Part shown: positions 13,001 through 49,006 of the stretch, one piece after another
How the letters are laid out: every line of letters starts with the position of its first letter
How positions within the stretch are numbered: position 1 is the first letter of the stretch
Assembly: GCA_044238735.1 (NCBI GenBank)
Contig: JBIICS010000003.1
Location: 1 to 49,883 of the forward strand
Length of the DNA: 49,883 bases
Source: Bacteroidia bacterium
Lineage (GTDB): Bacteria; Bacteroidota; Bacteroidia; UBA4408
Direction of reading: 5' to 3'
Notes under the pieces: model-generated
What the model was told of the DNA's origin: nothing
Databases searched by the model: none
What the model saw: the letters and a program-made list of their open reading frames with translations, nothing else
Translations under genes and position numbers: made by a program

Positions 13001-13294
13001 GAATCATTTCCTATAATAGAAGCTAATTGTAATGAATCTAAACCTTTCAGTAATATTATTGTTTATCCAAATCCTTTTAACGATCAAATTTTAATTGCCT
13101 GCAATGATTGTATTACCGATAAAATTCACATCAAAATATTTTCAGCATTAGGTACACTTGTATTTGAAAAGAATTACTCTAATATAACCGTGCTAAATGA
13201 AAAAATAGAACTTAAAGGACTTAGCAAAGGGGTTTATTTCGTCGAATTGAATGATGGGCTTAATAAAGAAGTTAAACAATTGGTTAAGAATTAA
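10046..13294 (+). CDS. Large T9SS type A cargo protein with three Cys-containing PPC/CUB-like repeats
   Basis: Signal peptide (SWA-Q); three ~135-aa repeats starting N[ND][ED][CP] with D[VL]W[YF]/NSW and ending CV[TS]/YTI; LPISLIDF linker; CTD IVYPNPFND...LSKGVYFV...KQLVK. Confidence 0.85.
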   Translation: MNVFLQNIKKLVSKYLVFIFLLLFGFFTFKSWAQPANNECGGAVTLTVNAACSNTAGTTTGSTGNAGNPAPCVGTADDDVWYKFTANSPDQKITVSCNSGFDPVVQIFSGSCGALISQFCQDDGGDGVSEILDLTGFGVGSTYFVRVFHYYTGVGTGNFNICVTGTPPALNDEPCTAIDLPEVTSACVYSIYSLASATNTATPASPGCGWNGKDLWFKAIIPPNGKIDISTYSVSGGTSDPTMAIYSGSVCSSLTFISCDDNSGPGSLPYLNLSGRTPGEIIWIRVSSSTGIGDGRFKLCVSSPVNDDCGSSLFVCDINGFSGSTLYSYTIDMGALEEFSGGIFGQTGDGVSTTIENNSWLAFTASATSASLNVTISDCWNGQGIQMEVISGTCGNVASFVSNSNYLQTTTSQTLTATGLTIGNTYYLMIDGYAGDVCNYTITGTSGVRSLTVTPATANVCNGSSITLTANPVGFGNATYSWYSDPPGFSGSSATVTANPVEYTKYYVVVTGSCNEVQEANSTINVPNPNKVFTWTGGGTNTNDNWQDVNNWGSFAGCLPDCNNSVTIPSSPSVNATNFPKLNSAAACKNLIIQDDPVTADANYSLSIFNSGNLSVCGNISLYGTMPTNTHYSSNNSSRITFSGSSPQFFYASALSSNNLPSITVNNTNGVTILDGKDASGTYKDMSINPSGNLVLSSGIINTSGARNVVINNPNTNAITSHSTNSYINGRLTRAVNATGSYDFPVGNSTAYELANINLNSVSGGLNSINAFFEPAFDETDLIQTPTVLEPDDINKEYEGFLNNGGTGVGSGTLIPNVWTITPNSGSANYSITLHGRNYNNASGFVHTVGKRNTPITCLPTWSASGSYSTNGNASNVVSATRTNVTGFSQFVILRGLNVLPISLIDFEAKCKGDQTTLIWSTAQEVNNSHFVIERACNEELVFEDIAEVNGAGNSNTIQTYSLSVPTTSDRCYYRLRQVDYDGKEESFPIIEANCNESKPFSNIIVYPNPFNDQILIACNDCITDKIHIKIFSALGTLVFEKNYSNITVLNEKIELKGLSKGVYFVELNDGLNKEVKQLVKN

Positions 13295-19397: not shown

Positions 19398-22300
19398 ATG
19401 ATTAGAAAATTATTCTCTCTCGTTTTAGGATTAGCGCTTGGATTTTTCCCCACACTTTTATTGGCACAAGATGCTAACAAATTATGGAAACCCATTACTA
19501 AAGACGCTTTAAAAGATGAACGGGAAATTCCTAGAGGCTCACTAGTTAAGCAAGGCTATTATTATCAACTTAACTTAAATCAATTAAAAGAACTATTAAG
19601 AAACGCTCCTTTAAGGGGGACATTTACAGGCCTTTCACCACTAATTATATATTTCCCCGACGCTTACGGCTCATTTAGCAAATATGCTGTTATGGAAGCT
19701 CCTGTATTGCATCCAGAATTGGCGGCTAAGTATCCTGCAATTAAAAGTTATGCTGCTCAGGGCATCGATGATCCAACAGCAACATTACGATTTAGTGTTA
19801 CTCCATTTGGATTGCACGCTATGGTTTTATCTGGCAAGAATCCTACTAATTACATTGATCCTTATACTGTCAATAGAAATTTCTATGTGGTTTATGACAA
19901 GCAACAGGTGCAAAACGTTAATAATTTCTTTGAGTGTAATTTAAATGAAGGCATGAAACTTCCTTCTACAGGAAATGGTCCTTCTACCACCCTCGGTAAT
20001 ATAAACGATCAGAAACTGAGAACATACAGACTCGCACAATCCTGCAATGCAGAGTATGGAAATATTTTTGCAACAAATCCAGGAACCGAAAAAGCCGATA
20101 TTCAAGCACAAATGGCTATAACTATGACGCGTGTAAATGGTGTTTATGAAAGGGATTTAGCTATTACAATGACCTTTGTTCCCAATAATGACTTATTGAT
20201 TTATTATGGCAGTACTTCTGCTGATCCTTGGTCGGGCGAATTTAATACTAAAACTGCCCAGGTTATAGATGCTGCTATAGGCGTTGCAAATTACGACATC
20301 GGCCATAACTTCAATACTTCTGGTGGAGGAAGTGCCGGCTGTATAGGTTGTGTTTGTACCAGCCAAAGTCAATCGGGAACCCATAAAGGGCGTGGTTACA
20401 CCGGAAGTTCAAATCCTACAGGCGATCCTTTTGATATTGATTATGTGGCTCACGAAATGGGCCATCAGTTCGGTGGTTATCATGTTATGAATACCTGCAG
20501 CAGAAGTGGTAGCGGATCCACAGAGGTTGAACCCGCAAGCGGAAGCTCCATTATGGGCTATGCCGGAATTTGCAGTTCAAATGTTCAACCGAATAGCCAT
20601 GATGACTTTGCATACGTAAATATTCGCGATATTAGTGATAATATTCAAACTGGAGCAAGTTCTTGTGGAGCTCAAACGGTCTTAATTAATCAACCGCCAA
20701 CAGCAAGTGCAGGTTTAGATTTTGTGATTCCTAAGAGCACAGCGTATGTTTTAGAGGGCGCTGCTACGGATCCCGATGGAACAGCAGGCTTAACTTATAA
20801 CTGGGCTCAAAATGACCCCACTCGGTCGCCCGGAAGTGCTGCTCCGCTTTCTACTTACACTGTTGGTCCACTTTACAGAGCTCTTTCACCATCTACACTT
20901 TCTTATCGATACATGCCTAATATTAATACTATTTTATCCAACTCCCTGCAAAATACCTGGGAGGTTACTCCATCTGTTGCCCGTACATTAAACTTTTCCT
21001 TTATTGTTCGTGATAACGATGCTAATGGCGGACAAACCGCATCCGATTTAATGAAAGTTACTGTAGATGGAAATGCTGGCCCTTTTGTTGTAACCTCTCA
21101 AGCTACAACAGATACAATTGATGCAGGAAGCACTATTAACGTTACATGGAATGTTGCGAATACTAATGCGGGAAGCGTTAATTGTCAGAATGTAGACATT
21201 TTATTTTCAGTGGACAGCGGATTAACGTATCCTATTGTATTAGCCAGTGCTGTCCCTAATAATGGATCTGCATCAGTTATTATGCCCCAAAATGCTGCCA
21301 CTAACAAAGGAAGATTAATGGTAAGAGGTAATGGGAATATTTTCTTTGATATTAATAATGCATACTTAACTGTTCAGGCCGCCGAGTTCTTTCTCAGCTC
21401 ATTAAATAGTACTCAATCCAATTGCCCTGATGTTGATTCTGTAAATTATAGTTTAAACTATCAAACCTTTGTTGGATTTAGTGATACTACCTATTTTTCG
21501 TTGAGCGGCTTACCTGCCGGATTAACGGCTACCTTTACCCCAGCTTATGCTGTTAACAACAATACTTCAGTAGATTTATCTATTACAGGAATTGATTCCA
21601 GTTTTATCGGATCTTATGGACTTACGGTTGTAAGTACTTCGGCTAATGTTGTTAAGAATACATTGTTATCCTTAAATGTGTTAAACAATAATTTAGGATC
21701 AGTGGCTTTAAGCTTTCCTATAGATTCTGCTACAGGTATTTCAAATAATATTACCTTGAGTTGGCAAAGTACAGGAGGGGGAAGTACCTATGATTTAGAA
21801 ATTTCAAACGATTCTACGTTTACTAATATCTTCTCAAGTGCTAATTCTATAACTTCTAATTTTTATACTGTAAGTGGATTGATTTCTGCAACCAAATATT
21901 ATTGGAGGGTAAAAGCCAGCAATGTATGTTCTAATGGGGTTTATGGTAAAGCATTTAGTTTTATTACCAACAATTGTAATAATTTTATATCCGCTAATGT
22001 ACCTATTACAATATCTGCCTCAGGTACACCCACAATAAATTCTAATCTGAATATTTCGTTCAGCGGTGTTATCTCTGATGTTGATGTTATAGGCATAAAA
22101 GGAACTCATACATTCATAAGCGATTTAACGTTCAGTTTAAAGAGTCCTGCTAATACTACCTTAAAATTAATTGATCAGATTTGTGATTCTGAAAACAATT
22201 TTGATTTTAGTTTGGATGATGCCGCCGCAAATAATGTTTTGCCTTGTCCGCCAATTGGAGGTGGTACTTATCAACCTGAGGTATTATTAAATAGTTTTAA

Positions 22301-22697
22301 CGGACAGCAAACAAATGGCACCTGGACTTTATCTATTAAAGATAACTTTAATCAGGATGGAGGTAGCTTAACCGCATGGGGACTAAAAATTTGTTATCAG
22401 GATGCTCCTTTAGGTATGGTTTCCAAAACTATTTGGGCTTCCTTAAATCCGGTTCTTTATCCAAACCCAACTCATAATTTAACAACTGTTGGTTTTAGTT
22501 TGCAGGAGAAGCAAAAGGTTACAATCCAATTAAAGGATCTAACCGGTAAATGCATAGATACCATTGTAAATAATACGCTTAGCGAAGGTCCACACGAATT
22601 TACTATTGGAAATAACTCCAGCCTTTCGAAAGGAATTTACTTAGTTGAAATAAGCATTAATGATTTAAAAGTTACTAAGAAATTAGTGGTTGAGTAA
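19398..22697 (+). CDS. Reprolysin-like zinc metalloprotease with FN3-like and P-like domains and a T9SS type A CTD
   Basis: HEMGHQFGGYH zinc motif; Met-turn SSIMGYAG; YYWRVKA; HTFISDL...NGTWTLSIKD; CTD LYPNPTHN...KGIYLVEI...KKLVVE. Confidence 0.92.
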   Translation: MIRKLFSLVLGLALGFFPTLLLAQDANKLWKPITKDALKDEREIPRGSLVKQGYYYQLNLNQLKELLRNAPLRGTFTGLSPLIIYFPDAYGSFSKYAVMEAPVLHPELAAKYPAIKSYAAQGIDDPTATLRFSVTPFGLHAMVLSGKNPTNYIDPYTVNRNFYVVYDKQQVQNVNNFFECNLNEGMKLPSTGNGPSTTLGNINDQKLRTYRLAQSCNAEYGNIFATNPGTEKADIQAQMAITMTRVNGVYERDLAITMTFVPNNDLLIYYGSTSADPWSGEFNTKTAQVIDAAIGVANYDIGHNFNTSGGGSAGCIGCVCTSQSQSGTHKGRGYTGSSNPTGDPFDIDYVAHEMGHQFGGYHVMNTCSRSGSGSTEVEPASGSSIMGYAGICSSNVQPNSHDDFAYVNIRDISDNIQTGASSCGAQTVLINQPPTASAGLDFVIPKSTAYVLEGAATDPDGTAGLTYNWAQNDPTRSPGSAAPLSTYTVGPLYRALSPSTLSYRYMPNINTILSNSLQNTWEVTPSVARTLNFSFIVRDNDANGGQTASDLMKVTVDGNAGPFVVTSQATTDTIDAGSTINVTWNVANTNAGSVNCQNVDILFSVDSGLTYPIVLASAVPNNGSASVIMPQNAATNKGRLMVRGNGNIFFDINNAYLTVQAAEFFLSSLNSTQSNCPDVDSVNYSLNYQTFVGFSDTTYFSLSGLPAGLTATFTPAYAVNNNTSVDLSITGIDSSFIGSYGLTVVSTSANVVKNTLLSLNVLNNNLGSVALSFPIDSATGISNNITLSWQSTGGGSTYDLEISNDSTFTNIFSSANSITSNFYTVSGLISATKYYWRVKASNVCSNGVYGKAFSFITNNCNNFISANVPITISASGTPTINSNLNISFSGVISDVDVIGIKGTHTFISDLTFSLKSPANTTLKLIDQICDSENNFDFSLDDAAANNVLPCPPIGGGTYQPEVLLNSFNGQQTNGTWTLSIKDNFNQDGGSLTAWGLKICYQDAPLGMVSKTIWASLNPVLYPNPTHNLTTVGFSLQEKQKVTIQLKDLTGKCIDTIVNNTLSEGPHEFTIGNNSSLSKGIYLVEISINDLKVTKKLVVE

Positions 22698-22721: not shown

Positions 22722-22761
22722 AAAAAGACTCCGTTACCTCATTTAACGGGGTCTTTTTTTT
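22722..22761. terminator. Bidirectional intrinsic terminator between convergent genes
   Basis: AAAAAGACTCCGTTA-loop-TAACGGGGTCTTTTTTTT, with A/T tracts on both sides. Confidence 0.85.
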
Positions 22762-22787: not shown

Positions 22788-23531
22788 CTACTGCGATTTT
22801 GTTCTAAAGAAATAACTGAACCTCAGGCCCCAATAGGAGCCTTTGTTGGTAAACTGATGCATATAGTTTTGATTATCTAAGGTATATTCAACAAATGAAT
22901 TTGCGATGTTATTGCCTGAAAAGGAACCAAATAAATAAACTCCAAATAATTGATTCTTTTTAAACTGCTTTTCCATACCTATTGATAGCAATCCATTTAC
23001 TCGAGTATATTTTCTTGCATTAGTCGTTTGCATTAATGTTGCAAAGGATTTATTAGCACTATCATCAATTTGATCTTTATTATTCTTAAAAGTTTTTAGA
23101 TTGTTATGCCAAGCCAGAGATACACCGCCACCAGCTACCCAGCGCCAATTTTTACAATTAAGGTTAGACTTGTAAAATCCCATTAATGGAATAATACCCT
23201 CTAGCCATTTGTGAGTAACACCTTTATAATGATAATCTTTATTTAATAAAGAATAGTTTTGAGTTAATACGGTTGAAAATCCCAACACATTAGCACCAAT
23301 ACCAGTTTGAATAAAAAGATGATTATTTAAATCTTTCCGGGCACTAATTTGCCATTCAACGCCTTTAAATTCGTTGTGATGGAAACGGGCATGAGCATTA
23401 CCGTTACCTCCTATAAAATGAGATTCATTATGCGTACTACTTAAAGATAGACCCCATTGTATTTTACCGCTTTGTGCAAATAATCCCAATGTTCCCAACA
23501 GAGCAAGGGAGGTTAATCCAATTTTTTTCAT
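22788..23531 (-). CDS. Outer membrane beta-barrel domain protein
   Basis: Signal peptide (LFA-Q); alternating amphipathic strands; aromatic C-terminal strand YWGLRFSYFF. Confidence 0.7.
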   Translation of the reverse strand: MKKIGLTSLALLGTLGLFAQSGKIQWGLSLSSTHNESHFIGGNGNAHARFHHNEFKGVEWQISARKDLNNHLFIQTGIGANVLGFSTVLTQNYSLLNKDYHYKGVTHKWLEGIIPLMGFYKSNLNCKNWRWVAGGGVSLAWHNNLKTFKNNKDQIDDSANKSFATLMQTTNARKYTRVNGLLSIGMEKQFKKNQLFGVYLFGSFSGNNIANSFVEYTLDNQNYMHQFTNKGSYWGLRFSYFFRTKSQ

Positions 23532-23645: not shown

Positions 23646-25253
23646 TTAGGACAATCCGTTCGTTTTACTTTTAATTACGAGGTTAAGGATGATGCTGAAA
23701 AAGGCTCCGATTAGCATCAAAAAAGCAATCCAGTCGCCAAAGCGAGTATAAAAAGTAAGTTCATTATTTAAATTAACCGTTTGTTTGAGAGTTGATTCTT
23801 CCCACCAGTTAGTAGCATTTGTAATTTCACCAGTTTGATTAATAATTGCTGATATACCGGTATTTGCACTTCTAACCACACTTCTACGGTGTTCAATTGC
23901 TAATAAGCGAGCATAATTAAGGTGTTGCTTGTAGCCGGGAGTATCTCCCCACCAACCATCGTTTGTTATAATTCCAATTAAGTTGGCGCCTTTACTTACA
24001 AAGTCTCCTACTAAACCTCCGTATATACTTTCATAACATATAATTGAAGCAATACATAATTCATCACCCTTTACCTTAAAAACACTGGGTTCTTTTTGCG
24101 ATCCTAAACTACCCGATGTTCCGCCTAATTCTATAGCAAAGCTTTCAAAAAGTTTAAAAAATTTAGGAAAGGGCATTTTTTCTACTCCCGGAACTAGTCG
24201 GGATTTATGATAAAACTGATTTTTTTCTTTATTAGAAAAAAAGGCAGCGGTATTAAATATATCAAAATACATATCGGCATCTATAAATTTACGAGCGGTT
24301 TCTGTGGCCTCAGCTTTACTATTATATACTTTTAACGTAGAAACTCCCATTAACATTTTAAGTTTTGCATTTTGTTGTAAAAACTTATGAATAATGGTGT
24401 CTTCCTGTGTTAATGCAAATTCATCTTCGTTAATATTTTGAGGAAGTGTAGTTTCGGGTGTTACCACCAGATCGGTACTTTGATCAATTTCGGTAGAAGC
24501 CAACTGTAGTGCCTTATGTAGCTGATACTCCTGGGTTAGGCTTGTAAATTTCTCATTGTATGGATCTATGTTGGGTTGAACGACCACTACATTTAGAGGA
24601 TTAAATTTTTCTTGATATCTGTAAAAAATAAACAGAGAGCAAATTACCGGCAATAATACAGTGCCTATTAAAAGACTAAGCCACTTTAGATTTTCTTTAA
24701 GTGTTTCTTGTTTAAAATATACCTTTTTAATTAACTGGTAAATAATTCCATTAATCATTAATATCCATAAACTTCCACCAAAAGGCCCCGTATATTCGTA
24801 CCATTGAATGTATTTAGTAATCATAGCCAAACCGTTACCTAATGTTAGCCATGGCCAGGTAAGATCCCAATCGTGATGCAAATATTCGAATGAAATCCAA
24901 AATAAAGGAAATAAAAATATTCGCAACACTTCATTAATCTTTCGTGTACTAACCGACCACAGCCAAAAAGTAAAGAACATTAATAGCGCATTGGAGACAA
25001 TTGCCATAATTGCTCCTCCTGCAGAAGCATTCCATATCCACCAGGTGGTTAAAATATTCCATATTAAGAAGGGCGGATAGAAATAAAGAAAGAAATTATA
25101 TTTTTTAAAATAATTTTTTATCCAATAGTCTTCTGCAATAAACAAGGGGATAAAAGAAACGAAGATTAACGGTGAAATTCCGGAAACTGGCCAAGATACA
25201 GACAATAAAAGGCCACTAGCCAATAGAGCAAGAAGAAATTTTTTTTTATTCAT
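23646..25253 (-). CDS. lnt: Apolipoprotein N-acyltransferase
   Basis: TM domain with WPWLTLG; VVQPNI; nitrilase-fold triad PE(TT), YHKSRLVPGVE, ICYES; TNDGWW; RSANTGISA. Confidence 0.95.
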   Translation of the reverse strand: MNKKKFLLALLASGLLLSVSWPVSGISPLIFVSFIPLFIAEDYWIKNYFKKYNFFLYFYPPFLIWNILTTWWIWNASAGGAIMAIVSNALLMFFTFWLWSVSTRKINEVLRIFLFPLFWISFEYLHHDWDLTWPWLTLGNGLAMITKYIQWYEYTGPFGGSLWILMINGIIYQLIKKVYFKQETLKENLKWLSLLIGTVLLPVICSLFIFYRYQEKFNPLNVVVVQPNIDPYNEKFTSLTQEYQLHKALQLASTEIDQSTDLVVTPETTLPQNINEDEFALTQEDTIIHKFLQQNAKLKMLMGVSTLKVYNSKAEATETARKFIDADMYFDIFNTAAFFSNKEKNQFYHKSRLVPGVEKMPFPKFFKLFESFAIELGGTSGSLGSQKEPSVFKVKGDELCIASIICYESIYGGLVGDFVSKGANLIGIITNDGWWGDTPGYKQHLNYARLLAIEHRRSVVRSANTGISAIINQTGEITNATNWWEESTLKQTVNLNNELTFYTRFGDWIAFLMLIGAFFSIILNLVIKSKTNGLS

Positions 25254-25256
25254 AAA

Positions 25257-28200
25257 TTATCGCATGATGTATAGCTTTCCAAAACCCTTTTTAAAAAAGG
25301 TATCGGCCTTTGTTTCTCTTTTTTCGATAGTTTGACCGTTTATATTGGTTACCACCTTATAAAAGTATACGCCATTGGCCAACTTATCGCCAAAAGAATC
25401 GGTTCCATCCCAGGCATATTCTGTAATATTTCTGCCAATGTGTATGGATCCTAATTCTGATAAATCAATTTCTCTAACCACCTTTCCGCTAATACTTAAA
25501 ATCTGAATTTTAAAGTATGTAGGAATCTCACTTCCGGTGAGGGTAAAAACAAAACGGGTACTGGTGCTAAAAGGATTTGGATAGTTTAAAACTTCTGTAA
25601 TAGTAGATTTCGTTACAATTTCAAAACTTATTTTGTATTCGTTACTACCCGAACGGTTTCCGCTTACATCTTTCCCTTGAACAACAAGTTGATAAACTCC
25701 GTCTTTCGTGAAGCTGGGTTTATAATTAATCTTAGCTCTGTTGGAAGGTAAGCTTGCAGGAGTAAATTCAAGTTTGTAATATGGTGTTTCTGCAAAATAA
25801 AGAGGTATCCTGTTTGCGTTATCCGGTTCAATTAGATATAAATTAAACAAGGAAGTATCATTGATTGCCAAAAATTTATTTTCATCTTTTAGTGTAATTA
25901 AAACATCAGGTTTAGCCGAAACAATATCACCGTTCATAATTCTAATACCGTCAAAAGTTACGTCTAAAAGGGGATTGATTTTATCCGGATTTACACCAAA
26001 TGATAAATTAAAGAAATTATTGAAATGATATTTTTCTGGTTGATCGTTATTAGGATTTATTTCCATCCAAATGGAGTTTGATCCACTTAAGGAAAGTGTT
26101 GGAATAGTAATAGTACTGTACATGGTATCTTCTTTAAATAAAGGGCTTTGGCGTTTATAGGGTAATGGTTGCTGAAGGTTATAGGGCAAATCAATTCGTT
26201 GATTGTTGTTGTTTATAATCCAGTAATTTATCATTAAGCTATCCATGTTAACATCACTAATGTTTTTAACAGCAAGGGTAAGCTTAATGTCTTCGCCCGA
26301 ATTTACATTCGAATTACTTATTTCCATCTTAATGTTAGGCGCAACGGCAGCCTCCGGAACCTCATCGTGTAATAGTCTCCAGTATCTTAACTGACGTGGG
26401 TTTAATGTAATATCATCTTTGGTGTAAAAGTTCAATTTTAAATAGGGGTATACATTAGCATCAGCATAATTATACAAATCCAAAACATCCAGAGTAGATG
26501 GATCAAATTGAGCCAGTAATGTACCCTTCTCGCTTAAGTTTTTTAAACCATAAATTTTAGCTATTACTTCATCATTACTTGGAACCTCTATACTCCTTGT
26601 TCTCCAGTGAAAAGAATTCCACTTGTTGGCTGGTCCGGCAATTACCGAATTCATATTGCCGTAATTCCAATTTTTGCTTACAACTTTATTGTAATTTATC
26701 ACTTCATTAATTGATGTTCCTATAACTTGTTCGGCGGAGTTTACATCGCCTTTTTTACAAAAGAAGATATAGGGAACACTTCCCATAAAATTATTAACGT
26801 TGCCACCCAAAGAATTAAGAAAAGAAATAGTTGTATTATCCCATTTAGAAAAATCTCCATGAACATACGTATACATCAAAATATAATACCCATTAGGTAT
26901 AGCTGTATCCAAAAACATTCTCATGGCCTGCAACTGAGACGGATTGCTGGGTGCAAATGCAAAACTGGCATCCGGATTTATTCTCGATCCACAAGCACTC
27001 TGGCCATTAATAAAAGCGTTGTTATTACCATAATTATTTCGATCGGTAAGCCAGGGTTTAAAAGTTAAGGTATCAATAACTGCTATATTAATTTGGGGCG
27101 TAAATCCACAACCTGCATAATCCATAATGTTACCATCAATTTTATAACCGGTTGCAAAAGATACACTGTTTCCGATAACATCGCATTGAATGTTTACAGA
27201 TGAATTAACATATTCTAGTTTTCTGATGTTACGATTATAGTTTAAAAATGTAAACTCATTTTCCTTAAATTGAAAAAAGTGGCTTTGACCCCAACCGCTT
27301 TTTGCAGGAATATATTGAAATGAAAATTCTTTCCACTTTAAATTTGTACTTCCGTCATCGTAGGCTACTCTCCAAAAATAGACCGTGCTGTCGGTTAGTA
27401 AAAAGGGAAGATTCCATTGTACAATACCTCCCGGTTTATTTACAGTTGTTTGTTTTAAAAACGGACTGTTAAACAAATCTGTAGTATCTATCTGGAATTT
27501 ATAATTACGGAGAGGTGCTAACGGATTGCTGGTAGAAGCAATAAGCCGTGTTGTATCATTTGGTATTACAGAATAATTATAAGGATAAATTGGAAACACA
27601 TCATCCGAATTAATATTAACGCCATAACATGCTTTATTGTTGATATAGTTCTCTAATTCATCAATAGCATTGGAGGGATCAGCATTAACACAAAAATTAT
27701 TAATTCCGCCTGCTTCAAACGACTTGGTAGGAAACTTAAAATAAGCAGTATCCGCATAATATGATCTGTTAATTTGTGTAGCATAAACTTCGGTAATCTG
27801 ATTAGGAAGGGTTCTTTTATATTCAATCTGTACTGGTTGATTATACGCTCTTCCAATATTATTAATTACAGCTTTAACTGTAAATGAATCCACCGTTGCA
27901 TCAATATTTTGTGGAGACGTAATAATATTATTTGCAGTAACTAAAAAATCGGGTTTCGCAGGAGAGTTTAAAATTATAGCGGGATCACCGTGTAAGGTCA
28001 TCTCCAAACAAGTAGCCCTCATTATGTTATTTTGAACTGACGATGAGGTATTGATTGCATTTTGGATTGAGGTTCCAATTGATTTTCCGTAATTAATTTT
28101 ACCAATGTTATTAAACAAGTTTGTAGAATAAATATTTAAAAAGCTTGTAACACCCGTTCCTACTTGCGCCAAAAATCCAATTGCACCTTTATTTTTATTT

Positions 28201-30230
28201 AACACCCAGTCTTCGCTGGTTGTAGCAGAAGATGGGGTATGTATATCACCCGCATAACAACTGTTGGCAACAATAAGCGGATACTTACCCTGGTTATTGT
28301 AATTAGAAGCGTAATCTATACTTACATCAAAACTACTACCGGCCGCATGGCCAAAAAAAGTCATTAAACTTACGCCATTATTAATTAAGTTTTTAACCGA
28401 ATCGGGCACATTGGTTTGAATGGGCTGATTTGTTGTTTTAGAAAACAAATGTATTTTACCGCCAAAATAAAAATCTACGAGTGTATCTGCATATATCTGC
28501 AAATAACTCTTTAATTCATTATTTTGATTAATGTCTGTGCCACCCGCAAAATGCAATATGTTCTTCATCCACAATGCAGGAGCGTTATTTTCGAATTCAA
28601 TTATTTTATTTAAATAGTCTTGGGCCTCAACATTATTTTTTGCTGCCACTCTTCCGGTTGCTAACGAAGGGACCAGTTCAGGAGTATTAATATTTGCAGT
28701 AATCAGATTATCAGACGCAGGTTCTCCCCAAGTAGGCACAAGACAGGAGTTGTAATTGGTACTGTTAAATCTGTTGTTAGAGCTGGAAATTCCTTTACCT
28801 AGCAACAATAAATACCGGGCCCTGGTTCCGTTATTTAAAAGGTTTACTATCAATCCCCTTATTGCATATGGATTTTTATTAATACCGTGTGCATATTGTT
28901 CGTATAATTCATTGATATTTACATAGGAAGCGTTTAATCCTTTAGAAGTTCGATAGGTAGCGTAGTTATTGGCAGCCTGAGAAAGTGAAGGATGGCTAAC
29001 GATTAAAAACTCCGCTCCGTTTAAGGTTGTTTTATAATTAGTGAAAAAACCCGGCGAACTACCTGTGGGATTTGCCAGTTTTATATTGTTAATCGCTTTT
29101 ATTTTAGCCTGACTAACAATGACGCATTGATGTTGAGCCCCTATTGATGGAATGAGTGCTGAAAATCCAGATCCGTTATTAAAAAAACTAATTCTAAACT
29201 TACCGCTTAAATCGTATAAAATACTATTAGTGGCTGTTCCGGAAAATTTAGTAAAATCTAAACGCGTTTTAGCCTCATTAAATTCTTCATTCAAATAAAA
29301 ATTAAAAAAAGCAGAATCCTCAAAATTACATAGGTGAGGATACATTAATTCGGTATATGCAAGCCCAATCCGGCCTGTTGAATTTACTCCTGGAAACGCA
29401 ATAGAATTTACAGCGATAGCATTATTGGCGTTTAGAAGGGAGTTATTTATAATTAATTTTCGTTTAATATGATTGAAATCGGTATAACTGGTATCGGTAA
29501 GGGGCGTGTTGTTAAAAACAAACTGAACCGTATTTTTGCCCGTTGCATCCGTAATTAATCCGTATTTTAAAGTTGCATTTGCACCCGAATAAATTTGGGG
29601 TGCCGGAAGATTTATATTTAATGATGAACCAACTCCAAAAATGCTGCTTACATAACCCTCCCCATCCATATAGCCTGGTTCTCCCAAGCCAAATATAACT
29701 CTTGGTCCACCGTGATAATAATTATTGAAATATCTTAAAACTGATTTATAATAAAAGTTAACCGGTGTATAAGTGCTAAAGTTATTATCGTTTTGAACGC
29801 TATATCTTAAATTTCCCGAAAATTGATTATTGTAGGTAAGGTAATAATAGGCGGTGTCGCCAAACAAACTGAAATATGGATTAACCTGTTGGGATGGATT
29901 TTTATAAAATACGCTATCAAAATATCCATCATTTCGTTGACCATAAAATTCAATAAAATCGTTTGTATTAAAAATACCATCACCTTCACCTTCAATGAAT
30001 AGAGGAATTTCTTGACCCCTTGCAAATAGTTGTATATTTTTGGCTGAAATACTATTTACAGGATATCCTGCCTGAACCAAACTAGCATAATTTATGCGGT
30101 AAATACCATCTTCGGTAACAGGAAACCGCCAGTATTTTTGAGAATAATTTATCCATTCATTTCCGTATGGCTGTGCTTTAGCCGAAACTATCCACAAGCT
30201 TACTAAAATAAATGAAATTAACGTTCTCAT
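25257..30230 (-). CDS. PorU-like C25 (gingipain-family) cysteine peptidase, long variant (putative T9SS sortase paralogue)
   Basis: Signal peptide; YLLLLGKG, ATGRVAA; catalytic FFGHAAG and ANSCYAG; LHGDPAI; PorU-like C-terminus NYPNPFSTSTRF...WDGTD.FGDKLANGVYFYKV. Confidence 0.85.
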   Translation of the reverse strand: MRTLISFILVSLWIVSAKAQPYGNEWINYSQKYWRFPVTEDGIYRINYASLVQAGYPVNSISAKNIQLFARGQEIPLFIEGEGDGIFNTNDFIEFYGQRNDGYFDSVFYKNPSQQVNPYFSLFGDTAYYYLTYNNQFSGNLRYSVQNDNNFSTYTPVNFYYKSVLRYFNNYYHGGPRVIFGLGEPGYMDGEGYVSSIFGVGSSLNINLPAPQIYSGANATLKYGLITDATGKNTVQFVFNNTPLTDTSYTDFNHIKRKLIINNSLLNANNAIAVNSIAFPGVNSTGRIGLAYTELMYPHLCNFEDSAFFNFYLNEEFNEAKTRLDFTKFSGTATNSILYDLSGKFRISFFNNGSGFSALIPSIGAQHQCVIVSQAKIKAINNIKLANPTGSSPGFFTNYKTTLNGAEFLIVSHPSLSQAANNYATYRTSKGLNASYVNINELYEQYAHGINKNPYAIRGLIVNLLNNGTRARYLLLLGKGISSSNNRFNSTNYNSCLVPTWGEPASDNLITANINTPELVPSLATGRVAAKNNVEAQDYLNKIIEFENNAPALWMKNILHFAGGTDINQNNELKSYLQIYADTLVDFYFGGKIHLFSKTTNQPIQTNVPDSVKNLINNGVSLMTFFGHAAGSSFDVSIDYASNYNNQGKYPLIVANSCYAGDIHTPSSATTSEDWVLNKNKGAIGFLAQVGTGVTSFLNIYSTNLFNNIGKINYGKSIGTSIQNAINTSSSVQNNIMRATCLEMTLHGDPAIILNSPAKPDFLVTANNIITSPQNIDATVDSFTVKAVINNIGRAYNQPVQIEYKRTLPNQITEVYATQINRSYYADTAYFKFPTKSFEAGGINNFCVNADPSNAIDELENYINNKACYGVNINSDDVFPIYPYNYSVIPNDTTRLIASTSNPLAPLRNYKFQIDTTDLFNSPFLKQTTVNKPGGIVQWNLPFLLTDSTVYFWRVAYDDGSTNLKWKEFSFQYIPAKSGWGQSHFFQFKENEFTFLNYNRNIRKLEYVNSSVNIQCDVIGNSVSFATGYKIDGNIMDYAGCGFTPQINIAVIDTLTFKPWLTDRNNYGNNNAFINGQSACGSRINPDASFAFAPSNPSQLQAMRMFLDTAIPNGYYILMYTYVHGDFSKWDNTTISFLNSLGGNVNNFMGSVPYIFFCKKGDVNSAEQVIGTSINEVINYNKVVSKNWNYGNMNSVIAGPANKWNSFHWRTRSIEVPSNDEVIAKIYGLKNLSEKGTLLAQFDPSTLDVLDLYNYADANVYPYLKLNFYTKDDITLNPRQLRYWRLLHDEVPEAAVAPNIKMEISNSNVNSGEDIKLTLAVKNISDVNMDSLMINYWIINNNNQRIDLPYNLQQPLPYKRQSPLFKEDTMYSTITIPTLSLSGSNSIWMEINPNNDQPEKYHFNNFFNLSFGVNPDKINPLLDVTFDGIRIMNGDIVSAKPDVLITLKDENKFLAINDTSLFNLYLIEPDNANRIPLYFAETPYYKLEFTPASLPSNRAKINYKPSFTKDGVYQLVVQGKDVSGNRSGSNEYKISFEIVTKSTITEVLNYPNPFSTSTRFVFTLTGSEIPTYFKIQILSISGKVVREIDLSELGSIHIGRNITEYAWDGTDSFGDKLANGVYFYKVVTNINGQTIEKRETKADTFFKKGFGKLYIMR

Positions 30231-31321
30231 GGTTTTGCATTCACTTTTCGGTTAATGTCTAATCGCAAAGAAATGACATTAGAATATAACGCCACCGACT
30301 GGTCGCCAATATCAGTTAAGGCATAATCTATACTAAACATTTTTATTTTTATTCCAACACCAAAATTAGGTTGCATAGTATATTCCAGTTTACCGGTAAT
30401 ATCTGTTGCCTGCTGTATATTGCCAATACCAGCTCTTATATAAGCTATGTTAGCATAAGAAAATTCCATACCGGCATGAGGGTCTATATTTAGATTTTTA
30501 CTTTTGATTAAAACGTTTCTAAATCCGTCGAAAGTAAAATCGGCATCTAAAATACCGGTTAAAGTAAATTTAGAATTAAAACTGTGTTTATATCCAGAAC
30601 TTAATATAATGCGGGGAGCGGTAATCTCGGTACTGTTTACGGGAATTTCGTTTCCGGTTGCGGCAAATACTTCTTTGGTTTTATCATTTAAGTTGTACGA
30701 CCATGCATTAAAAGTATTGGTGATATCTCTACCCATGGCTCCAAAACGCCAATTGTTTTTGTGATATTGAATTCCGGCATCCAATCCGAACCCCCACGAT
30801 TTACCAAAGCCACCAATAATACGATGGATAATTTTTGCATTAGCTCCAATAGTTAAACCCTTGATTTTAGTTTTTCTTGCTGCAGAAAAGAAAAAAGCAT
30901 TATCAGCAATTGAAAAACTAGAAATTCGGCTATAATCTACCACTCCATTTGCATCAATCAATTCTATAGTGTTTGGAATATCATCAACACCAAAACGTAT
31001 AAAAGATGCAGAAACGGTTGTATTTGAGTCTACCCTTGTTCCAAATGCGCCGTAATCAAACTTGGCAATACCGGCAAAATAACTGCTGTGCATTAAAGCC
31101 AGTTGCGCCTTGTCTTCCATTCGAGCCAGACCGGCCGGATTCCAATAACCAGATGTAACATCGTTTACAATTGAAGCCTGTGCACCCGACATGCCTAAAC
31201 CTCTGGCGCCCACCCCAATGTTTAAGAATTCGTTACTGTACTTTCTGATGCTTTGTGCATTAGCAAACTGACTTATGATTATTAAAATGCTGATGTGTAT
31301 ATAAATCCGGGATGTTTTCAT
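30227..31321 (-). CDS. PorV/PorQ family outer membrane protein
   Basis: RKYSNEFLNIGVGARGLGMSGA and SGYWNPAGL (FadL-like PorV family N-terminus); overlaps the start of the C25 gene. Confidence 0.85.
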   Translation of the reverse strand: MKTSRIYIHISILIIISQFANAQSIRKYSNEFLNIGVGARGLGMSGAQASIVNDVTSGYWNPAGLARMEDKAQLALMHSSYFAGIAKFDYGAFGTRVDSNTTVSASFIRFGVDDIPNTIELIDANGVVDYSRISSFSIADNAFFFSAARKTKIKGLTIGANAKIIHRIIGGFGKSWGFGLDAGIQYHKNNWRFGAMGRDITNTFNAWSYNLNDKTKEVFAATGNEIPVNSTEITAPRIILSSGYKHSFNSKFTLTGILDADFTFDGFRNVLIKSKNLNIDPHAGMEFSYANIAYIRAGIGNIQQATDITGKLEYTMQPNFGVGIKIKMFSIDYALTDIGDQSVALYSNVISLRLDINRKVNAKP

Positions 31322-31348
31322 TTTAGAGTTGATGCTTTGGCACTAACA

Positions 31349-31356
31349 CAAATTTA
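31349..31356 (-). promoter_or_regulatory. Internal -7 promoter element upstream of the PorV-family gene
   Basis: Minus strand reads TAAATTTG in the 57-bp gap. Confidence 0.55.
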
Positions 31357-31378: not shown

Positions 31379-32845
31379 TTAATTTTTCTTAATAGCAACC
31401 GTATAAGGATCTACTGATAATTCGTGACTTTTTGGAATTAATTCCATTGTTTCGCAGTTAATAAATACAACGTTACCGTTTTTACCGGCACAATCGGTGG
31501 TGTGGTGAGGTGCAGGGCCACCCGGGCTAATATTTCGGTTAGTAACCCAAATACTGTTGGTTGATTCATCGTATGCAAGTCCATGGGGTTGAAAACCCGA
31601 ATACAGATGTTTTACCAGATTATTGGTTCCGATATCAATGATAGAGATTACTCCTTTTCGTTTTAAAGCTGCATTATTTAAATTAATATCATCTTCCATA
31701 CAACTAACGTAAAGTCTGTTTTTTTTAGGATCCAAGGTCATTTCTAATGGATATTCTCCAACCGGAATTACCTTAATAAGCTGATCGCTTTGGGTTTCCA
31801 AAACTCTTACTTCGTTGGAGCTTTGGCAGGTAACATAGTAGTATTGTTCATCCGGAGTAAAAAATATTTCATGTGCATCGTACTTTGAAGTTAAACTCGG
31901 CGTTTCTCCATTACCCAAAACAATTTGATCAACGGATGGAAACAAAGGATCGCTGATATCTAGTTTATAAATGAAGTTTCCGGTTTGAGCCGTTAAATAA
32001 AGCCATTTTCCATCCTTTGTAACATAACTTCCATGTGGGTAGTTTAAAAATCCTGGTCCCTGATATAGTTTAACTAAACTCAATTGCTCTAGATCAATGT
32101 AAGCCACCTTGCCCTCGGCACTCCAATCTACCACAAAAGCTTTTTTAGAATCCGAACTTATGGTAACCGTATTCCAGTTGCCCAAGCCAATTTCTATGTT
32201 AGCTAGAAGTTTATCGTCGGTTGTGTTATACACTTGCAAAACACTTCCATTAATAAATGTAACAACCCACTTTTTGTTATCAGGACTAACTTTAACCTGA
32301 TGCGGTGATTCGGTTATACCACTTAAAACACCTACCTCAACATAGTTAGAAACAACCTTAAATTTCAAATCCATTACCGCTACAATATCGCAACCCTGGT
32401 TTGTGATGTATGCCTTTTCTCTCCCCGGGCTATCTTTAAAAAATTTTTCACCGTTTCGGTTAGGAGCTCCAACACTAATCCAGTTTCTTATAGTTTCAAT
32501 CTCTTGTTTGCTTAGAACCGGATTATTAACCGGCATTGTTGGGGAGTTAGATACACCTAAATCCTGATGTATATTTACAAAAGTAAAAAATGGGCTTTTA
32601 TTGGGAAACCCACCAACCACTGAAGCACCGCTATTTGCTCCTTTAAAAAGATCACTCCAGGTTTCCAGGGATAAACCCGAGGCCGCTGTTTTATCATTTT
32701 GAGTATGACAGCCGGCTGTTGCACATTTGTTTTTGGTAATCAGCGCAATTTCGTTAGGAAATTCAGTAACAGAAAGTTCATTTTCAAAATTCCCGTATTT
32801 ACAGGAACTTATAAAGATAATTAGTATGAAAACATAATATTTCAT
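31379..32845 (-). CDS. Lipoprotein with N-terminal c-type cytochrome-like domain (CX4CH) and YncE-like beta-propeller
   Basis: Lipobox ISSC; CATAGCH motif then L..IR.WI..GAP; YVTN-type repeats (PHQVKVSPD, PHGSYVTKDG, PHGLAYD). Confidence 0.75.
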   Translation of the reverse strand: MKYYVFILIIFISSCKYGNFENELSVTEFPNEIALITKNKCATAGCHTQNDKTAASGLSLETWSDLFKGANSGASVVGGFPNKSPFFTFVNIHQDLGVSNSPTMPVNNPVLSKQEIETIRNWISVGAPNRNGEKFFKDSPGREKAYITNQGCDIVAVMDLKFKVVSNYVEVGVLSGITESPHQVKVSPDNKKWVVTFINGSVLQVYNTTDDKLLANIEIGLGNWNTVTISSDSKKAFVVDWSAEGKVAYIDLEQLSLVKLYQGPGFLNYPHGSYVTKDGKWLYLTAQTGNFIYKLDISDPLFPSVDQIVLGNGETPSLTSKYDAHEIFFTPDEQYYYVTCQSSNEVRVLETQSDQLIKVIPVGEYPLEMTLDPKKNRLYVSCMEDDINLNNAALKRKGVISIIDIGTNNLVKHLYSGFQPHGLAYDESTNSIWVTNRNISPGGPAPHHTTDCAGKNGNVVFINCETMELIPKSHELSVDPYTVAIKKN

Positions 32846-35022
32846 TACTCTTTCAATAATTTAAACACTTTGTGTTCAAAATTGTTTAGCACCTTTACAA
32901 AATATAAGCCGGAGGTGAGCATCGAAATATCTACAGTTTCATTGGGCTGGTAATTAGCCTCTAAAATTAATTTACCTGCTAAATTATATATTTCAAAAAT
33001 CACTTTAGTATTTAACTGATGAAACTTAAAACTGTTTGTAGCTGGGTTAGGAAAAATTGTAAGGTTTTGTAAAGACAATTTTGAGAAACCGGTACTTTTA
33101 ATAACGCTAAACAGACGAACACCTCCGGCATAATTTCCAATTAGCATTTCATTAATACCGTCGTTGTTTAAATCAGCTATTGCTGGATGGGTTCTAAATC
33201 CTAAATTAAGATTAGCTACACTATCGTTTACTAATGAAAAGGTTCCGGTTAAATTACCGTCGATATTGCCAAATTTAAGAATAGGACCATTTGCAGAACC
33301 TACATACAAGACCGTGTTATTATCTTCTTTACAGAAAGCAGGCGAAGCATAACCTACCGAATTTCCCTGAATGGCCGCTATATTAATGTTTCCGAATGGT
33401 TTTTTTATAAGTTTAAACTTTGATAATCCACTTGTAGCAGTATCTTGATAATAACTGAGCCTTCCATCGCTGCCTCCAATTATAAGATCGAGGCGATTAT
33501 CGTTATTTAAATCGTATAAAGTTGGTTTTGCAAAATTGCCTACATCAATGTTTTGCATTTTAGTTTGCTTTAAGCTAAAACTAGCTGTATTTCCATTTCC
33601 TGCTGTGTTTTCAAAAAACATAATTTCACCCACACTGGTTCCGATAAGCATGTCTTTATCCCCATCATAATCAACATCGCCAAAACAGGGAGCCAAGTTA
33701 GCAAGTGGCGCATATTGCAGTAAACCTGCAAAGTCGCTATTATCTAGTGTAAATTTAGGTTTTTGCAAGGTGCCGGTATTTTTATACGATACCAGCTTAG
33801 AGTTGCCAACGCCGTTTACTTTATAAGAATAATTACCGATGATAATGTCGGTAAGTCCATCCTGATTATAGTCAAAAAAACTAGGGAATGCACCCTCCCC
33901 CACATCAATCATTTGATCCTGTAAAAAATTACGTTGCTGTAATTCCAGGTAAACTGCTTTTGAGGTATCAATATCCTTATATAGCCAAACATTAGAAAAA
34001 TTATCAGAAGCATTAGGTCCATTTGGACAAGCGATCACATCGTTTTGTCCGTCGTTATTAGCATCAATACTATAGAAAGCAGGAAAGATGTATAAATTAA
34101 CCGGCACATCATAGCTAGGAAAAATACTATCCTGTGAACTGATGTAAGCTTCATTTATGGTGCCACTATTGAATAAAAAGGTTGCTTTAGGAAAAGAAAT
34201 ATCACCCAACACAACTTCTTTATCTCCATCACCATCGCTATCAAAAGCGAAAACGGTAGAACCCGCATGTTGTATATTTTGGTCTTCCACAACAAAACCC
34301 CATCCCCTGCATGTTTGATTAAGGTAAACGGAATTGGTAGCAAAATCTTCCTTTACTTTTCCCCAGCAGGCATCTTCCAGTTTAAATTGATCCAGTTTAC
34401 AACCTTGTCCGTTTTCTATGGAATAATTTCTGTGATACTCGATGGTGGTACCTCCAACGGGGAAAGTCAGCACATCTAAATCCCCATCATTATCCATATC
34501 AATTATTGCAGGAATATCAACCCTGGAAACATATAAATTCGAAATTAAATTACCCCCAAAATCGCTGTTTACCATGTTACTGGCTAATTCAAAACTTAGT
34601 TCGGTTGACGAAGATGTATTATAAAAAACTTTGAAGCCATTTCCAACACTGCTTAACACATCTTGTTTTCCATCGCAATTAAGGTCGCGAAGCAAAACCC
34701 AATCGGTTAAACCATCAGGAAATTTACTTTCATACTGAGGTGCGTAAACAAATTTAATAGTATCTATTCCTCCTTTATTTAGGTAGGTAGTTATACGGTT
34801 TCCATTTCGGTCAAAAACAAACAAATCCTTTTTACCGTCGTTATTTAAATCCATTTCGGATAACTGAGCATTATTTATTCCGCCGGCCCAAGCAGAATTT
34901 AAAATTCTTCCACCCTGAATAACTTCTATACTATCTATAGGAGTAAGATCTTGTGCTTTTAATAAAACGGATTGAAAAAGAAAAAAGTCAATTACAAATA
35001 AAATAAGGATGAGTCGCATCAT
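32845..35022 (-). CDS. FG-GAP/VCBS repeat protein with T9SS type A CTD
   Basis: Many DxNxDGxxD loops; CTD IFPNPATN...SGLYFVKV...KLLKE. Start moved from 35061 to ATG 35022 (MMRLILILF signal peptide; a -7 element at 35038-35045 lies inside the longer ORF). Confidence 0.88.
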   Translation of the reverse strand: MMRLILILFVIDFFLFQSVLLKAQDLTPIDSIEVIQGGRILNSAWAGGINNAQLSEMDLNNDGKKDLFVFDRNGNRITTYLNKGGIDTIKFVYAPQYESKFPDGLTDWVLLRDLNCDGKQDVLSSVGNGFKVFYNTSSSTELSFELASNMVNSDFGGNLISNLYVSRVDIPAIIDMDNDGDLDVLTFPVGGTTIEYHRNYSIENGQGCKLDQFKLEDACWGKVKEDFATNSVYLNQTCRGWGFVVEDQNIQHAGSTVFAFDSDGDGDKEVVLGDISFPKATFLFNSGTINEAYISSQDSIFPSYDVPVNLYIFPAFYSIDANNDGQNDVIACPNGPNASDNFSNVWLYKDIDTSKAVYLELQQRNFLQDQMIDVGEGAFPSFFDYNQDGLTDIIIGNYSYKVNGVGNSKLVSYKNTGTLQKPKFTLDNSDFAGLLQYAPLANLAPCFGDVDYDGDKDMLIGTSVGEIMFFENTAGNGNTASFSLKQTKMQNIDVGNFAKPTLYDLNNDNRLDLIIGGSDGRLSYYQDTATSGLSKFKLIKKPFGNINIAAIQGNSVGYASPAFCKEDNNTVLYVGSANGPILKFGNIDGNLTGTFSLVNDSVANLNLGFRTHPAIADLNNDGINEMLIGNYAGGVRLFSVIKSTGFSKLSLQNLTIFPNPATNSFKFHQLNTKVIFEIYNLAGKLILEANYQPNETVDISMLTSGLYFVKVLNNFEHKVFKLLKE

Positions 35023-35037
35023 ATTGCTTAATTTACA

Positions 35038-35045
35038 CAAAATTA
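35038..35045 (-). promoter_or_regulatory. -7 promoter element for the FG-GAP gene
   Basis: Minus strand reads TAATTTTG, 15 nt upstream of ATG 35022. Confidence 0.55.
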
Positions 35046-35119
35046 GGGGGATTTTGAGCAAGGGGGATTTTAAATATATAAATACCTGATTTTCATATAT
35101 CTATAACGCCAAAAAAGAC

Positions 35120-38321: not shown

Positions 38322-39377
38322 ATGAAAACGAAAATACTTAAGCCTATTTTTATTACTGCGGCACTTGCCTTTGCTGCATGCGGTGGAAATAAAGAGCATG
38401 AAAATAAATCGGATACGGACGAGCAGGAACACCTCCGTTACGATGAAAGTTTAAAAGGCAAACTGGATGTATTTGGAAAATTACCAGCAGAAGCTATTAG
38501 TGAAACCAATGGATTAAATCCGGCAAAAATTGCGCTAGGCCACAAACTATACTTCGATAAGCAATTATCCAAAGATGGAAATATTAGTTGTAATTCTTGC
38601 CATAATTTAGAATCGTATGGAGTTGATAATCTCCCCAATTCTCCGGGTGATGCCGGCAAAAATGGAGACCGAAACTCTCCAACTGTTTTAAATGCATCTC
38701 TTCATAGCGCTCAATTCTGGGACGGCAGAGCCAAAGATGTTGAAGAACAAGCCGGTATGCCCGTCTTAAATCCTATAGAAATGGCAATACCCAATAAACA
38801 GTTCTTGGTGGATAGACTATCTAAAATAGCCGAATATAAAAAAATGTTTAACGATGCTTTCCCGGGTGAAAATAATTCCATTTCGTATGATAACATACAA
38901 AAAGCAATTGCTGCTTTCGAAAGAAAGTTGATTACACCTAGTCGATTCGATCAATATTTGGCTGGGGAATCTAAGGCATTAACGGTTTTAGAGAAAAAAG
39001 GCCTGGCTTCATTCATCAGTATAGGCTGCACGTCTTGTCATGCCGGAAATACACTGGGTGGAAATAAATTTCAGAAATTCGGGGTGTTTGGCAACTACTG
39101 GGATTATACCAAGAGCACTAAAATTGACGAAGGAAAGTACAATGTAACTAAACAAGAAACCGATAAGTATATATTTAAGGTACCCTCTTTACGTAATATC
39201 GAGAAAACACATCCTTATTTTCATGACGGAAGTATAAAAGAATTAGGAAGTGCAGTTGAAATTATGGCAAAATCGCAATTAAATTATGAGTTAAATAAGG
39301 ATGAAAAGGAAAACATTGTTGCCTTTTTAAAAACACTTACCGGTGATATCCCAGCGGCTTATAAGAAAGCGCCTTAA
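38322..39377 (+). CDS. Di-heme bacterial cytochrome c peroxidase (lipoprotein)
   Basis: Lipobox FAAC; CNSCH and CTSCH heme sites; RNSPTVLN, QFWDGRA, FKVPSLRNI, PYFHDGS. Confidence 0.93.
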   Translation: MKTKILKPIFITAALAFAACGGNKEHENKSDTDEQEHLRYDESLKGKLDVFGKLPAEAISETNGLNPAKIALGHKLYFDKQLSKDGNISCNSCHNLESYGVDNLPNSPGDAGKNGDRNSPTVLNASLHSAQFWDGRAKDVEEQAGMPVLNPIEMAIPNKQFLVDRLSKIAEYKKMFNDAFPGENNSISYDNIQKAIAAFERKLITPSRFDQYLAGESKALTVLEKKGLASFISIGCTSCHAGNTLGGNKFQKFGVFGNYWDYTKSTKIDEGKYNVTKQETDKYIFKVPSLRNIEKTHPYFHDGSIKELGSAVEIMAKSQLNYELNKDEKENIVAFLKTLTGDIPAAYKKAP

Positions 39378-49005: not shown

Positions 49006-49006
49006 A

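Follow-up and report, generated by a model that had tools for sequence, protein, structure and literature searches.

Does the locus described here, in which a PorV-like barrel gene and a long PorU-like peptidase gene are followed by lnt, encode a second pathway for attaching type IX secretion system (T9SS) cargo to the cell surface, and does the acyltransferase take part in it? All three are encoded on the minus strand of a 49,883-nucleotide stretch from Bacteroidia bacterium (GenBank assembly GCA_044238735.1, contig JBIICS010000003.1, positions 1 to 49,883), which is referred to in full as the window. How T9SS cargo is attached is understood only in the case of the PorU/PorV/PorQ/PorZ complex, from a few model species. 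An initial sequence-only reading of the locus had proposed that the barrel and the peptidase form an alternative shuttle and sortase pair and that their coupling to lnt could indicate an acyl-linked anchor. The best explanation of the data reported below, and in our judgement a likely one, is that the first two genes encode PorV2 and PorU2, a pair paralogous to PorV-PorU (and to PorQ-PorZ), and that lnt stands outside the attachment chemistry.

The peptidase gene, porU2 (25257..30230, minus strand), encodes a secreted C25 cysteine peptidase of 1,657 aa, a PorU paralogue and putative sortase. When scored against NF052324 (PorU_rel_Nterm, "putative T9SS sortase PorU2"), the protein reached 733.2 bits and passed the cut-off of 450, with residues 6-865 aligned to positions 5-879 of this 879-position N-terminal model. 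It failed the canonical PorU model, NF033707, at 251.3 bits against a cut-off of 420. The 1095-position PorU model is collinear, over its positions 4-768, with residues 30-789 of PorU2, so the likeness between the two proteins extends past the C25 domain. The catalytic domain itself (27975..29009, minus strand; residues 408-752) matches Pfam Peptidase_C25 with an E value of 2.5e-59. Within it, the codons of His628 (28347-28349, minus strand) and Cys658 (28257-28259, minus strand) were checked, and neither residue varies among 18 homologues. Their aligned counterparts in Porphyromonas gingivalis PorU (PDB 6ZA2) are the His and Cys at chain positions 655 and 688, which we take to be the catalytic H657 and C690 of UniProt numbering. 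The His/Cys dyad recognized in the initial reading is thus intact, and the protein is indeed several hundred residues longer than PorU (1,657 aa, compared with 1,156 aa in the 6ZA2 chain and 1,095 positions in the PorU model).

The gene upstream, porV2 (30227..31321, minus strand), encodes a 364-aa beta-barrel protein of the outer membrane that belongs to the PorV/PorQ family; its signal peptide ends in FANA, immediately before QS. This protein passed NF052325 (PorVQ2, "putative type IX sorting system protein PorV2") at 490.5 bits, the cut-off being 325, and residues 10-356 cover positions 7-353 of the 354 in that model. It also passed the PorV/PorQ superfamily model NF033709 (PorV_fam) over residues 31-335, narrowly, at 92.2 bits for a cut-off of 90. 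Both canonical models were failed: PorQ (NF033711) at 75.2 bits against 220 and PorV (NF033710) at 38.6 bits against 250. The N-terminal part of the protein matches Flavobacterium johnsoniae PorV (PDB 6H3I) weakly. Judged by the models passed and failed, the 364-aa and 1,657-aa proteins are a PorV2/PorU2 pair and not canonical PorV/PorU, as the suspicion that the peptidase was a paralogue had anticipated. As families, PorV2 and PorU2 are not new, having already been curated and named by NCBIfam.

A protein search returned 537 PorU2 clusters at an E value of 1e-10 or below. The best 120 of these are 1,636-1,757 aa long, align with 99-100% coverage and show 37-45% identity, except for two metagenomic relatives, which are the closest of the 120 (99% and 76% identity). 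Identity of the window protein to the genome-collection members listed does not exceed 44%, and identical copies of the window proteins occur in metagenome 3300042453. The window itself lies close to one end of a 119-kb contig from sample 3300059473, whose number is linked through genome names to the "ME" series, presumably Lake Mendota. In a scan of one genome per species, PorU2 relatives were present in at least 574 genomes. Among the matches listed, the Flavobacteriales carrying PorU2 include Vicingaceae, Crocinitomicaceae/Taishania, Lishizhenia and Salibacteraceae, and the Bacteroidales-type lineages include Lentimicrobiaceae, Salinivirgaceae and Marinifilum; Chitinophagales are represented as well. 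Conservation within the family spans the full length of the protein, with a mean column identity of 53% and invariant columns up to the C terminus. Canonical PorU is known from Flavobacteriales (F. johnsoniae) and Bacteroidales (P. gingivalis). Since both proteins occur in these two orders, PorU and PorU2 are, on the evidence of their distribution, old paralogues at the phylum level.

The gene neighbourhood was compared in 80 other PorU2 loci, using up to 10 kb on each side. In 66 of the 72 loci with sufficient upstream DNA, a same-strand porV2 ends no more than 300 nt upstream of porU2. This pairing supports the proposed alternative shuttle and sortase pair at the level of the family; what the proposal had presented as a possible second system is one that is already catalogued as PorV2/PorU2.

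The pair could also be the only PorV/PorU-type pair of its genome, in which case it would be a lineage-specific replacement and not a second pathway. Canonical PorU and PorV were absent from the 49.9-kb window, from 10 kb to its right and from the approximately 1.4 kb that reach the contig end on its left, and the DNA reached beyond the window ends held housekeeping genes only, with no T9SS genes. They were likewise absent among all open reading frames (ORFs) of the 80 loci and the window when distant queries were used (P. gingivalis PorU and F. johnsoniae PorV fragments taken from PDB alignments). These absences are what a replacement would predict, but the DNA sampled covers very little of each genome. 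Moreover, metagenome-assembled genomes with PorU2 belong to Flavobacteriales, Bacteroidales and Chitinophagales, and the first two of these orders also contain species with canonical PorU. The divergence is therefore older than those orders and has the look of paralogy, and the "2" in the NCBI names suggests the same. A literature search returned no useful T9SS gene tables for Crocinitomicaceae, Vicingaceae or Fluviicola. Taken together, these data make a replacement unlikely.

The region that follows the catalytic domain was modelled with AlphaFold2 from an alignment of 40 sequences. The model of residues 780-1657 has a mean predicted local distance difference test (pLDDT) score of 86 and consists of a chain of beta-sandwiches with one alpha/beta domain. 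Its fold matches in the PDB are generic macroglobulin, Ig and FN3 chains, together with PorU 6ZA2 at an E value of 2.6e-9. The possibility that the extension is a fused PorZ was considered and rejected: the model contains no beta-propeller, PorZ is absent among the 50 fold matches listed, and the PorZ family gave no match. The alpha/beta domain (26778..27230, minus strand; residues ~1001-1151) lies in the part specific to PorU2 and resembles FAM3/ILEI (PANDER). With Pfam PF15711, which has a gathering score of 27, the window domain stays under the threshold at 20.1 bits, and the orthologues P0014 and P0037 reach 34 bits. Modelled separately, the domain reached a pLDDT of 87, and its sole meaningful PDB fold match was FAM3C (5LC4; TM score 0.55, probability 1.00, E value 2.5e-3); PorU 6ZA2 was not matched in this fold search. 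Some members of the PANDER-like fold bind carbohydrate, an example being the stem domain of POMGnT1.

PorU2 ends in a T9SS C-terminal domain (CTD) of the long PorU type (25260..25586, minus strand; residues ~1549-1657), which measures approximately 109 aa from its NYPNPF motif. The extra region seen in the initial reading thus resolves into a beta-sandwich chain with one FAM3/ILEI-like domain and, after it, this long CTD. The CTD scored 28.3 bits with the type-A model TIGR04183 (cut-off 23), and its aligned counterpart in PorU 6ZA2 is the CTD region there (chain positions 1043-1145). A hidden Markov model (HMM) built from the CTDs of four local cargo candidates matched neither this CTD nor that of any other PorU2. 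The uncleaved CTDs of PorU and PorZ measure 108 and 96 aa, whereas cleaved CTDs measure 67-88 aa (PMC11285876), and the idea that uncleaved CTDs are held by cognate PorV-like barrels has been put forward (PMC10202324). Because the PorU2 CTD is PorU-like, falls with the uncleaved CTDs in length and is not matched by the cargo HMM, the comparison suggests that it is retained for docking on PorV2.

C25 is also the family of the gingipains, and PorU2 might accordingly be a gingipain-like surface protease or an adhesin, with PorV2 as no more than its membrane anchor. Besides the shared peptidase family, this explanation is favoured by the long Ig/FN3/macroglobulin-like stalk with its lectin-like ILEI domain, a combination common in adhesins and surface enzymes, and by the score of PorU2 below the canonical PorU cut-off. 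It accounts less well for the other features of the protein. The match to the PorU model takes in the N-terminal domains too, the CTD is long and PorU-like, and the tight pairing with a PorV/PorQ-family barrel mirrors that of PorU with PorV. In addition, the family looks single-copy and is strongly conserved in a housekeeping neighbourhood. We consider a protease or adhesin without sortase function quite unlikely.

In the PorV2-PorU2 explanation that we prefer, PorU2 would be exported by Sec through its signal peptide and then by the T9SS through its CTD. We infer that this long CTD escapes removal and docks PorU2 on the PorV2 barrel, as PorU is docked by PorV and PorZ by PorQ. At the surface, the His628/Cys658 dyad would cleave CTDs from cargo, and PorU2 may also transfer the cargo to an amine acceptor. 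The extension would form a beta-sandwich stalk bearing the FAM3/ILEI-like domain which, by analogy with the carbohydrate-binding members of its fold, might hypothetically bind a glycan on the acceptor or on the cargo. The lnt gene is probably cotranscribed with porU2 only through inherited gene order and would have no part in attachment.

Several other genes are conserved near porU2. Identified by Pfam, a pssA-like CDP-alcohol phosphatidyltransferase gene was found in 35 loci, purS in 26 and a gene for an lptB-like ATPase in 16; a tatC-like gene, named by reading representative sequences, was found in 13. In one clade (L008, L034, L041 and L074), a GT2 glycosyltransferase and a multi-transmembrane protein are encoded 3' of PorU2. 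The partner of the glycosyltransferase has no family match and is possibly GT-C-like, and the two could relate to the synthesis of a glycolipid acceptor.

A bolder version of the paralogue explanation would make PorV2-PorU2 a self-contained second attachment complex that works without PorZ and PorQ. In such a complex, a glycolipid or amine-lipid acceptor would be brought to the C25 active site by PorU2's own ILEI-like lectin domain, and a subset of cargo would be anchored to something other than anionic lipopolysaccharide (A-LPS). The ancient and only partly preserved linkage to envelope-lipid genes (lnt, the pssA-like and lptB-like genes, a gene for an MBOAT protein and the GT2/GT-C-like pair) would then reflect that chemistry. 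We regard this proposal as speculative and its probability as low.

The third gene, lnt (23646..25253, minus strand), encodes a 535-aa apolipoprotein N-acyltransferase that matches TIGR00546 together with Pfam LNT_N and CN_hydrolase. The TIGR00546 score of 214.3 bits passes the cut-off of 132.9. The codons of the catalytic triad were checked (E267, 24453-24455; K350, 24204-24206; C406, 24036-24038; minus strand), and all three residues are invariant in 15 Lnt orthologues. In PDB 5XHQ, presumably the Escherichia coli enzyme, the chain positions aligned with K350 and C406 are K335 and C387. The E-K-C triad noticed in the initial reading is thus confirmed as intact. The E. coli enzyme has C387 as its catalytic Cys (PMC11573676). 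The alternative N-acyltransferase Lnb has been reported as confined to Bacteroides (PMC11573676), and a standard Lnt is therefore to be expected in the lineage of the window. By sequence, the protein looks like the ordinary lipoprotein N-acyltransferase of the cell.

The linkage of lnt to porU2 was scored in the same loci. The start of lnt lies no more than 100 nt downstream of porU2 in 6 of 72 loci, no more than 2 kb downstream in 11 of 59 and no more than 5 kb downstream in 12 of 44. Within 10 kb downstream it was found in 17 of 80 loci, invariably on the same strand, and the linked loci are scattered throughout the PorU2 neighbour-joining tree. This old linkage has mostly been lost. In many of the linked loci, genes lie between porU2 and lnt; they include unrelated genes, some of them on the opposite strand, in L014, L030 and L068, and the GT2 and multi-transmembrane pair in L008, L034 and L074. 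Downstream of lnt, lpdA-like and hemH-like genes, also named by reading representative sequences, occur in 7-8 loci. These two and the other unrelated housekeeping neighbours (pssA-like, purS, lptB-like and tatC-like) are conserved as well as lnt or better. Since only a minority of loci show the linkage, inserted genes break it and housekeeping neighbours equal or surpass it, the position of lnt next to porU2 bears the mark of decaying ancestral gene order and not that of a functional operon partner such as porV2. The sequence-only reading had itself named a lack of conserved lnt adjacency as a refutation; adjacency is indeed not conserved, which in substance speaks against the acyl-anchor idea.

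A single pathway in which PorV2, PorU2 and Lnt together give cargo an acyl-linked anchor is consequently most improbable: the 3-nt spacing of porU2 and lnt in the window, the same-strand linkage across the PorU2 tree and the recurrence of other envelope-lipid genes nearby (pssA-like, lptB-like, MBOAT) speak for it, but lnt is a minority neighbour often separated by other genes, its product is an ordinary equivalog member by score and triad, and Lnt chemistry, part of the Lgt-Lsp-Lnt pathway, acts on the N-terminal Cys of lipoproteins and not on protein C termini, which itself counts against such an anchor.

Some observations weigh against the paralogous-pair explanation with lnt as a bystander. 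By HMM score, PorV2 is slightly closer to PorQ than to PorV, which loosens the analogy with the shuttle PorV. PorU2 and canonical PorU or PorV were never met together in the scanned DNA, which is a very small part of each genome, and a literature search found no paper describing the PorU2/PorV2 family and no experiment on either protein. Five loci (L002, L003, L012, L024 and L033) have PorU2 without PorV2 within approximately 10 kb upstream. Finally, lnt is tightly adjacent to porU2 in at least four scattered lineages besides the window, and a weak functional benefit of co-expressing the two genes is conceivable. L024, one of the five loci without PorV2, is the nearest neighbour of the window on the PorU2 tree.

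At the sequence level, all claims made about the arrangement of the three genes hold. The porV2 ORF (31321..30227, 364 aa) and the porU2 ORF (30230..25257, 1,657 aa) overlap by 4 nt (ATGA), and the porU2 stop codon is separated by a 3-nt gap from the ATG of lnt (TAA-TTT-ATG), whose ORF runs over 25253..23646 (535 aa). A candidate -7 promoter box, TAAATTTG (31356..31349, minus strand), fits the Bacteroidota consensus TAnnTTTG. It lies 28 nt 5' of the porV2 ATG, within the 57-nt intergenic gap that follows the upstream gene. Across the window, TANNTTTG occurs 71 times, compared with 80.5 expected from shuffles, and so shows no enrichment; only the position of TAAATTTG counts in its favour. The box that had been assigned to this operon is thus present, and its placement fits a Bacteroidota promoter, although taken alone it is weak evidence. 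A sigma-70 promoter scan of the window gave 59 sites for 52.9 expected, a type of scan that is uninformative for Bacteroidota.

Downstream, a gene in the same direction (22788..23531, minus strand) begins 114 nt after lnt. Its product, a secreted protein of 247 aa, carries a signal peptide and matched no family; the gene has no counterpart near PorU2 in the 80 compared loci. The C terminus of this protein is rich in aromatic residues, and the protein may be a small outer-membrane barrel. No terminator-like site was found in the interval between lnt and the 247-aa gene; a strong bidirectional terminator-like hairpin with a 15-bp stem (22722..22758) lies between the 247-aa gene and a convergent gene for an M12B/CTD metalloprotease. 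On the other side, two co-directional genes (31379-35061, minus strand) lie 5' of porV2, with one base (32845) common to both ORFs. Their products are an FG-GAP repeat protein of 738 aa that bears a type-A CTD and a protein of 488 aa that has a cytochrome-c-like motif as well as a YVTN/NHL beta-propeller. Both genes may belong to the same transcript as porV2. The transcription unit therefore probably starts at porV2, or at the pair of genes 5' of it, and extends through the 247-aa gene.

Four type-A CTD proteins are encoded in the window (6020-7318, 10046-13294, 19398-22697 and 32845-35061), as had been noted, and their CTD matches span approximately 69-79 residues. The further suggestion that they are the dedicated cargo of the local pair found no support, since in the other 80 loci no orthologue of any of them occurs near PorU2. 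A conserved cargo set beside PorU2 was rejected as well. Of the 936 ORFs flanking PorU2 in those loci, 40 bear a CTD, a share that we judge to be unremarkable for T9SS-rich genomes.

Two further features of the window were recorded. An MbnP-like copper-binding protein is encoded beside a MauG/MbnH-like di-haem peroxidase, and a second MauG-like gene lies 10 kb from this pair; the genes concerned lie at 38322-39377 and 48085-49816 on the plus strand and just past the right end of the window (L082, 3254-4306) and could form a copper-acquisition module. In addition, a 697-aa protein is encoded between two of the CTD proteins (7315-9408, plus strand). It had no match in a Pfam scan, and its precomputed annotation is PF26696 (PTL_trimer).

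A widespread second sortase-like module could account for the way in which some Bacteroidota divide their cargo between release and distinct surface anchors. To the catalogued families the window adds a divergent PorU2 member and a domain map comprising the beta-sandwich stalk, the ILEI-like domain and the long CTD. The map suggests that PorU2 may have a built-in ligand-binding part, and the long CTD suggests that the protein is docked on PorV2. Beyond this, the value of the locus is as a pointer to a catalogued family that is experimentally uncharacterized.

Among known systems, the closest comparison is with PorU-PorV (PG0026/PG0027 in P. gingivalis; Fjoh_1556/1555 in F. johnsoniae). PorU2 shares with PorU the C25 His/Cys dyad, collinear N-terminal and catalytic regions and a long CTD, and in both systems the peptidase gene adjoins a gene for a 14-stranded FadL-like barrel of the PorV/PorQ family. 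In contrast to PorU and PorV, the window pair scores below the curated PorU and PorV cut-offs, and PorU2 is approximately 500 aa longer, with extra beta-sandwiches and an ILEI/PANDER-like domain that is unmatched to 6ZA2. The gene order also differs, with the barrel before the peptidase and the 4-nt overlap between them, and the sortase activity, which in canonical PorU cleaves CTDs and transfers cargo to A-LPS, is putative for PorU2. Compared with NF052324 and NF052325, whose cut-offs the two adjacent genes pass by wide margins, no difference was seen at the family level.

PorZ-PorQ offers a second parallel, since PorZ is also a surface protein held on a PorV/PorQ-family barrel by an uncleaved CTD, an arrangement proposed for PorU2 by analogy. 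The two surface proteins are otherwise built differently, residues 780-1657 of PorU2 being beta-sandwiches with one alpha/beta domain and PorZ being absent among the fold matches listed. With FAM3C/ILEI, which has the PANDER-like, GG-type lectin fold, the PorU2 domain shares a fold match over its whole 156 columns. Unlike FAM3C/ILEI, it is embedded in a bacterial surface peptidase, at 16-17% identity, and the lectin role belongs to other members of the fold. Compared with known Lnt (TIGR00546; structures 5XHQ and 5N6H), the window protein has the same LNT_N and CN_hydrolase domains, the same E-K-C triad and a score above the cut-off. It is unusual only in its place, directly after porU2.

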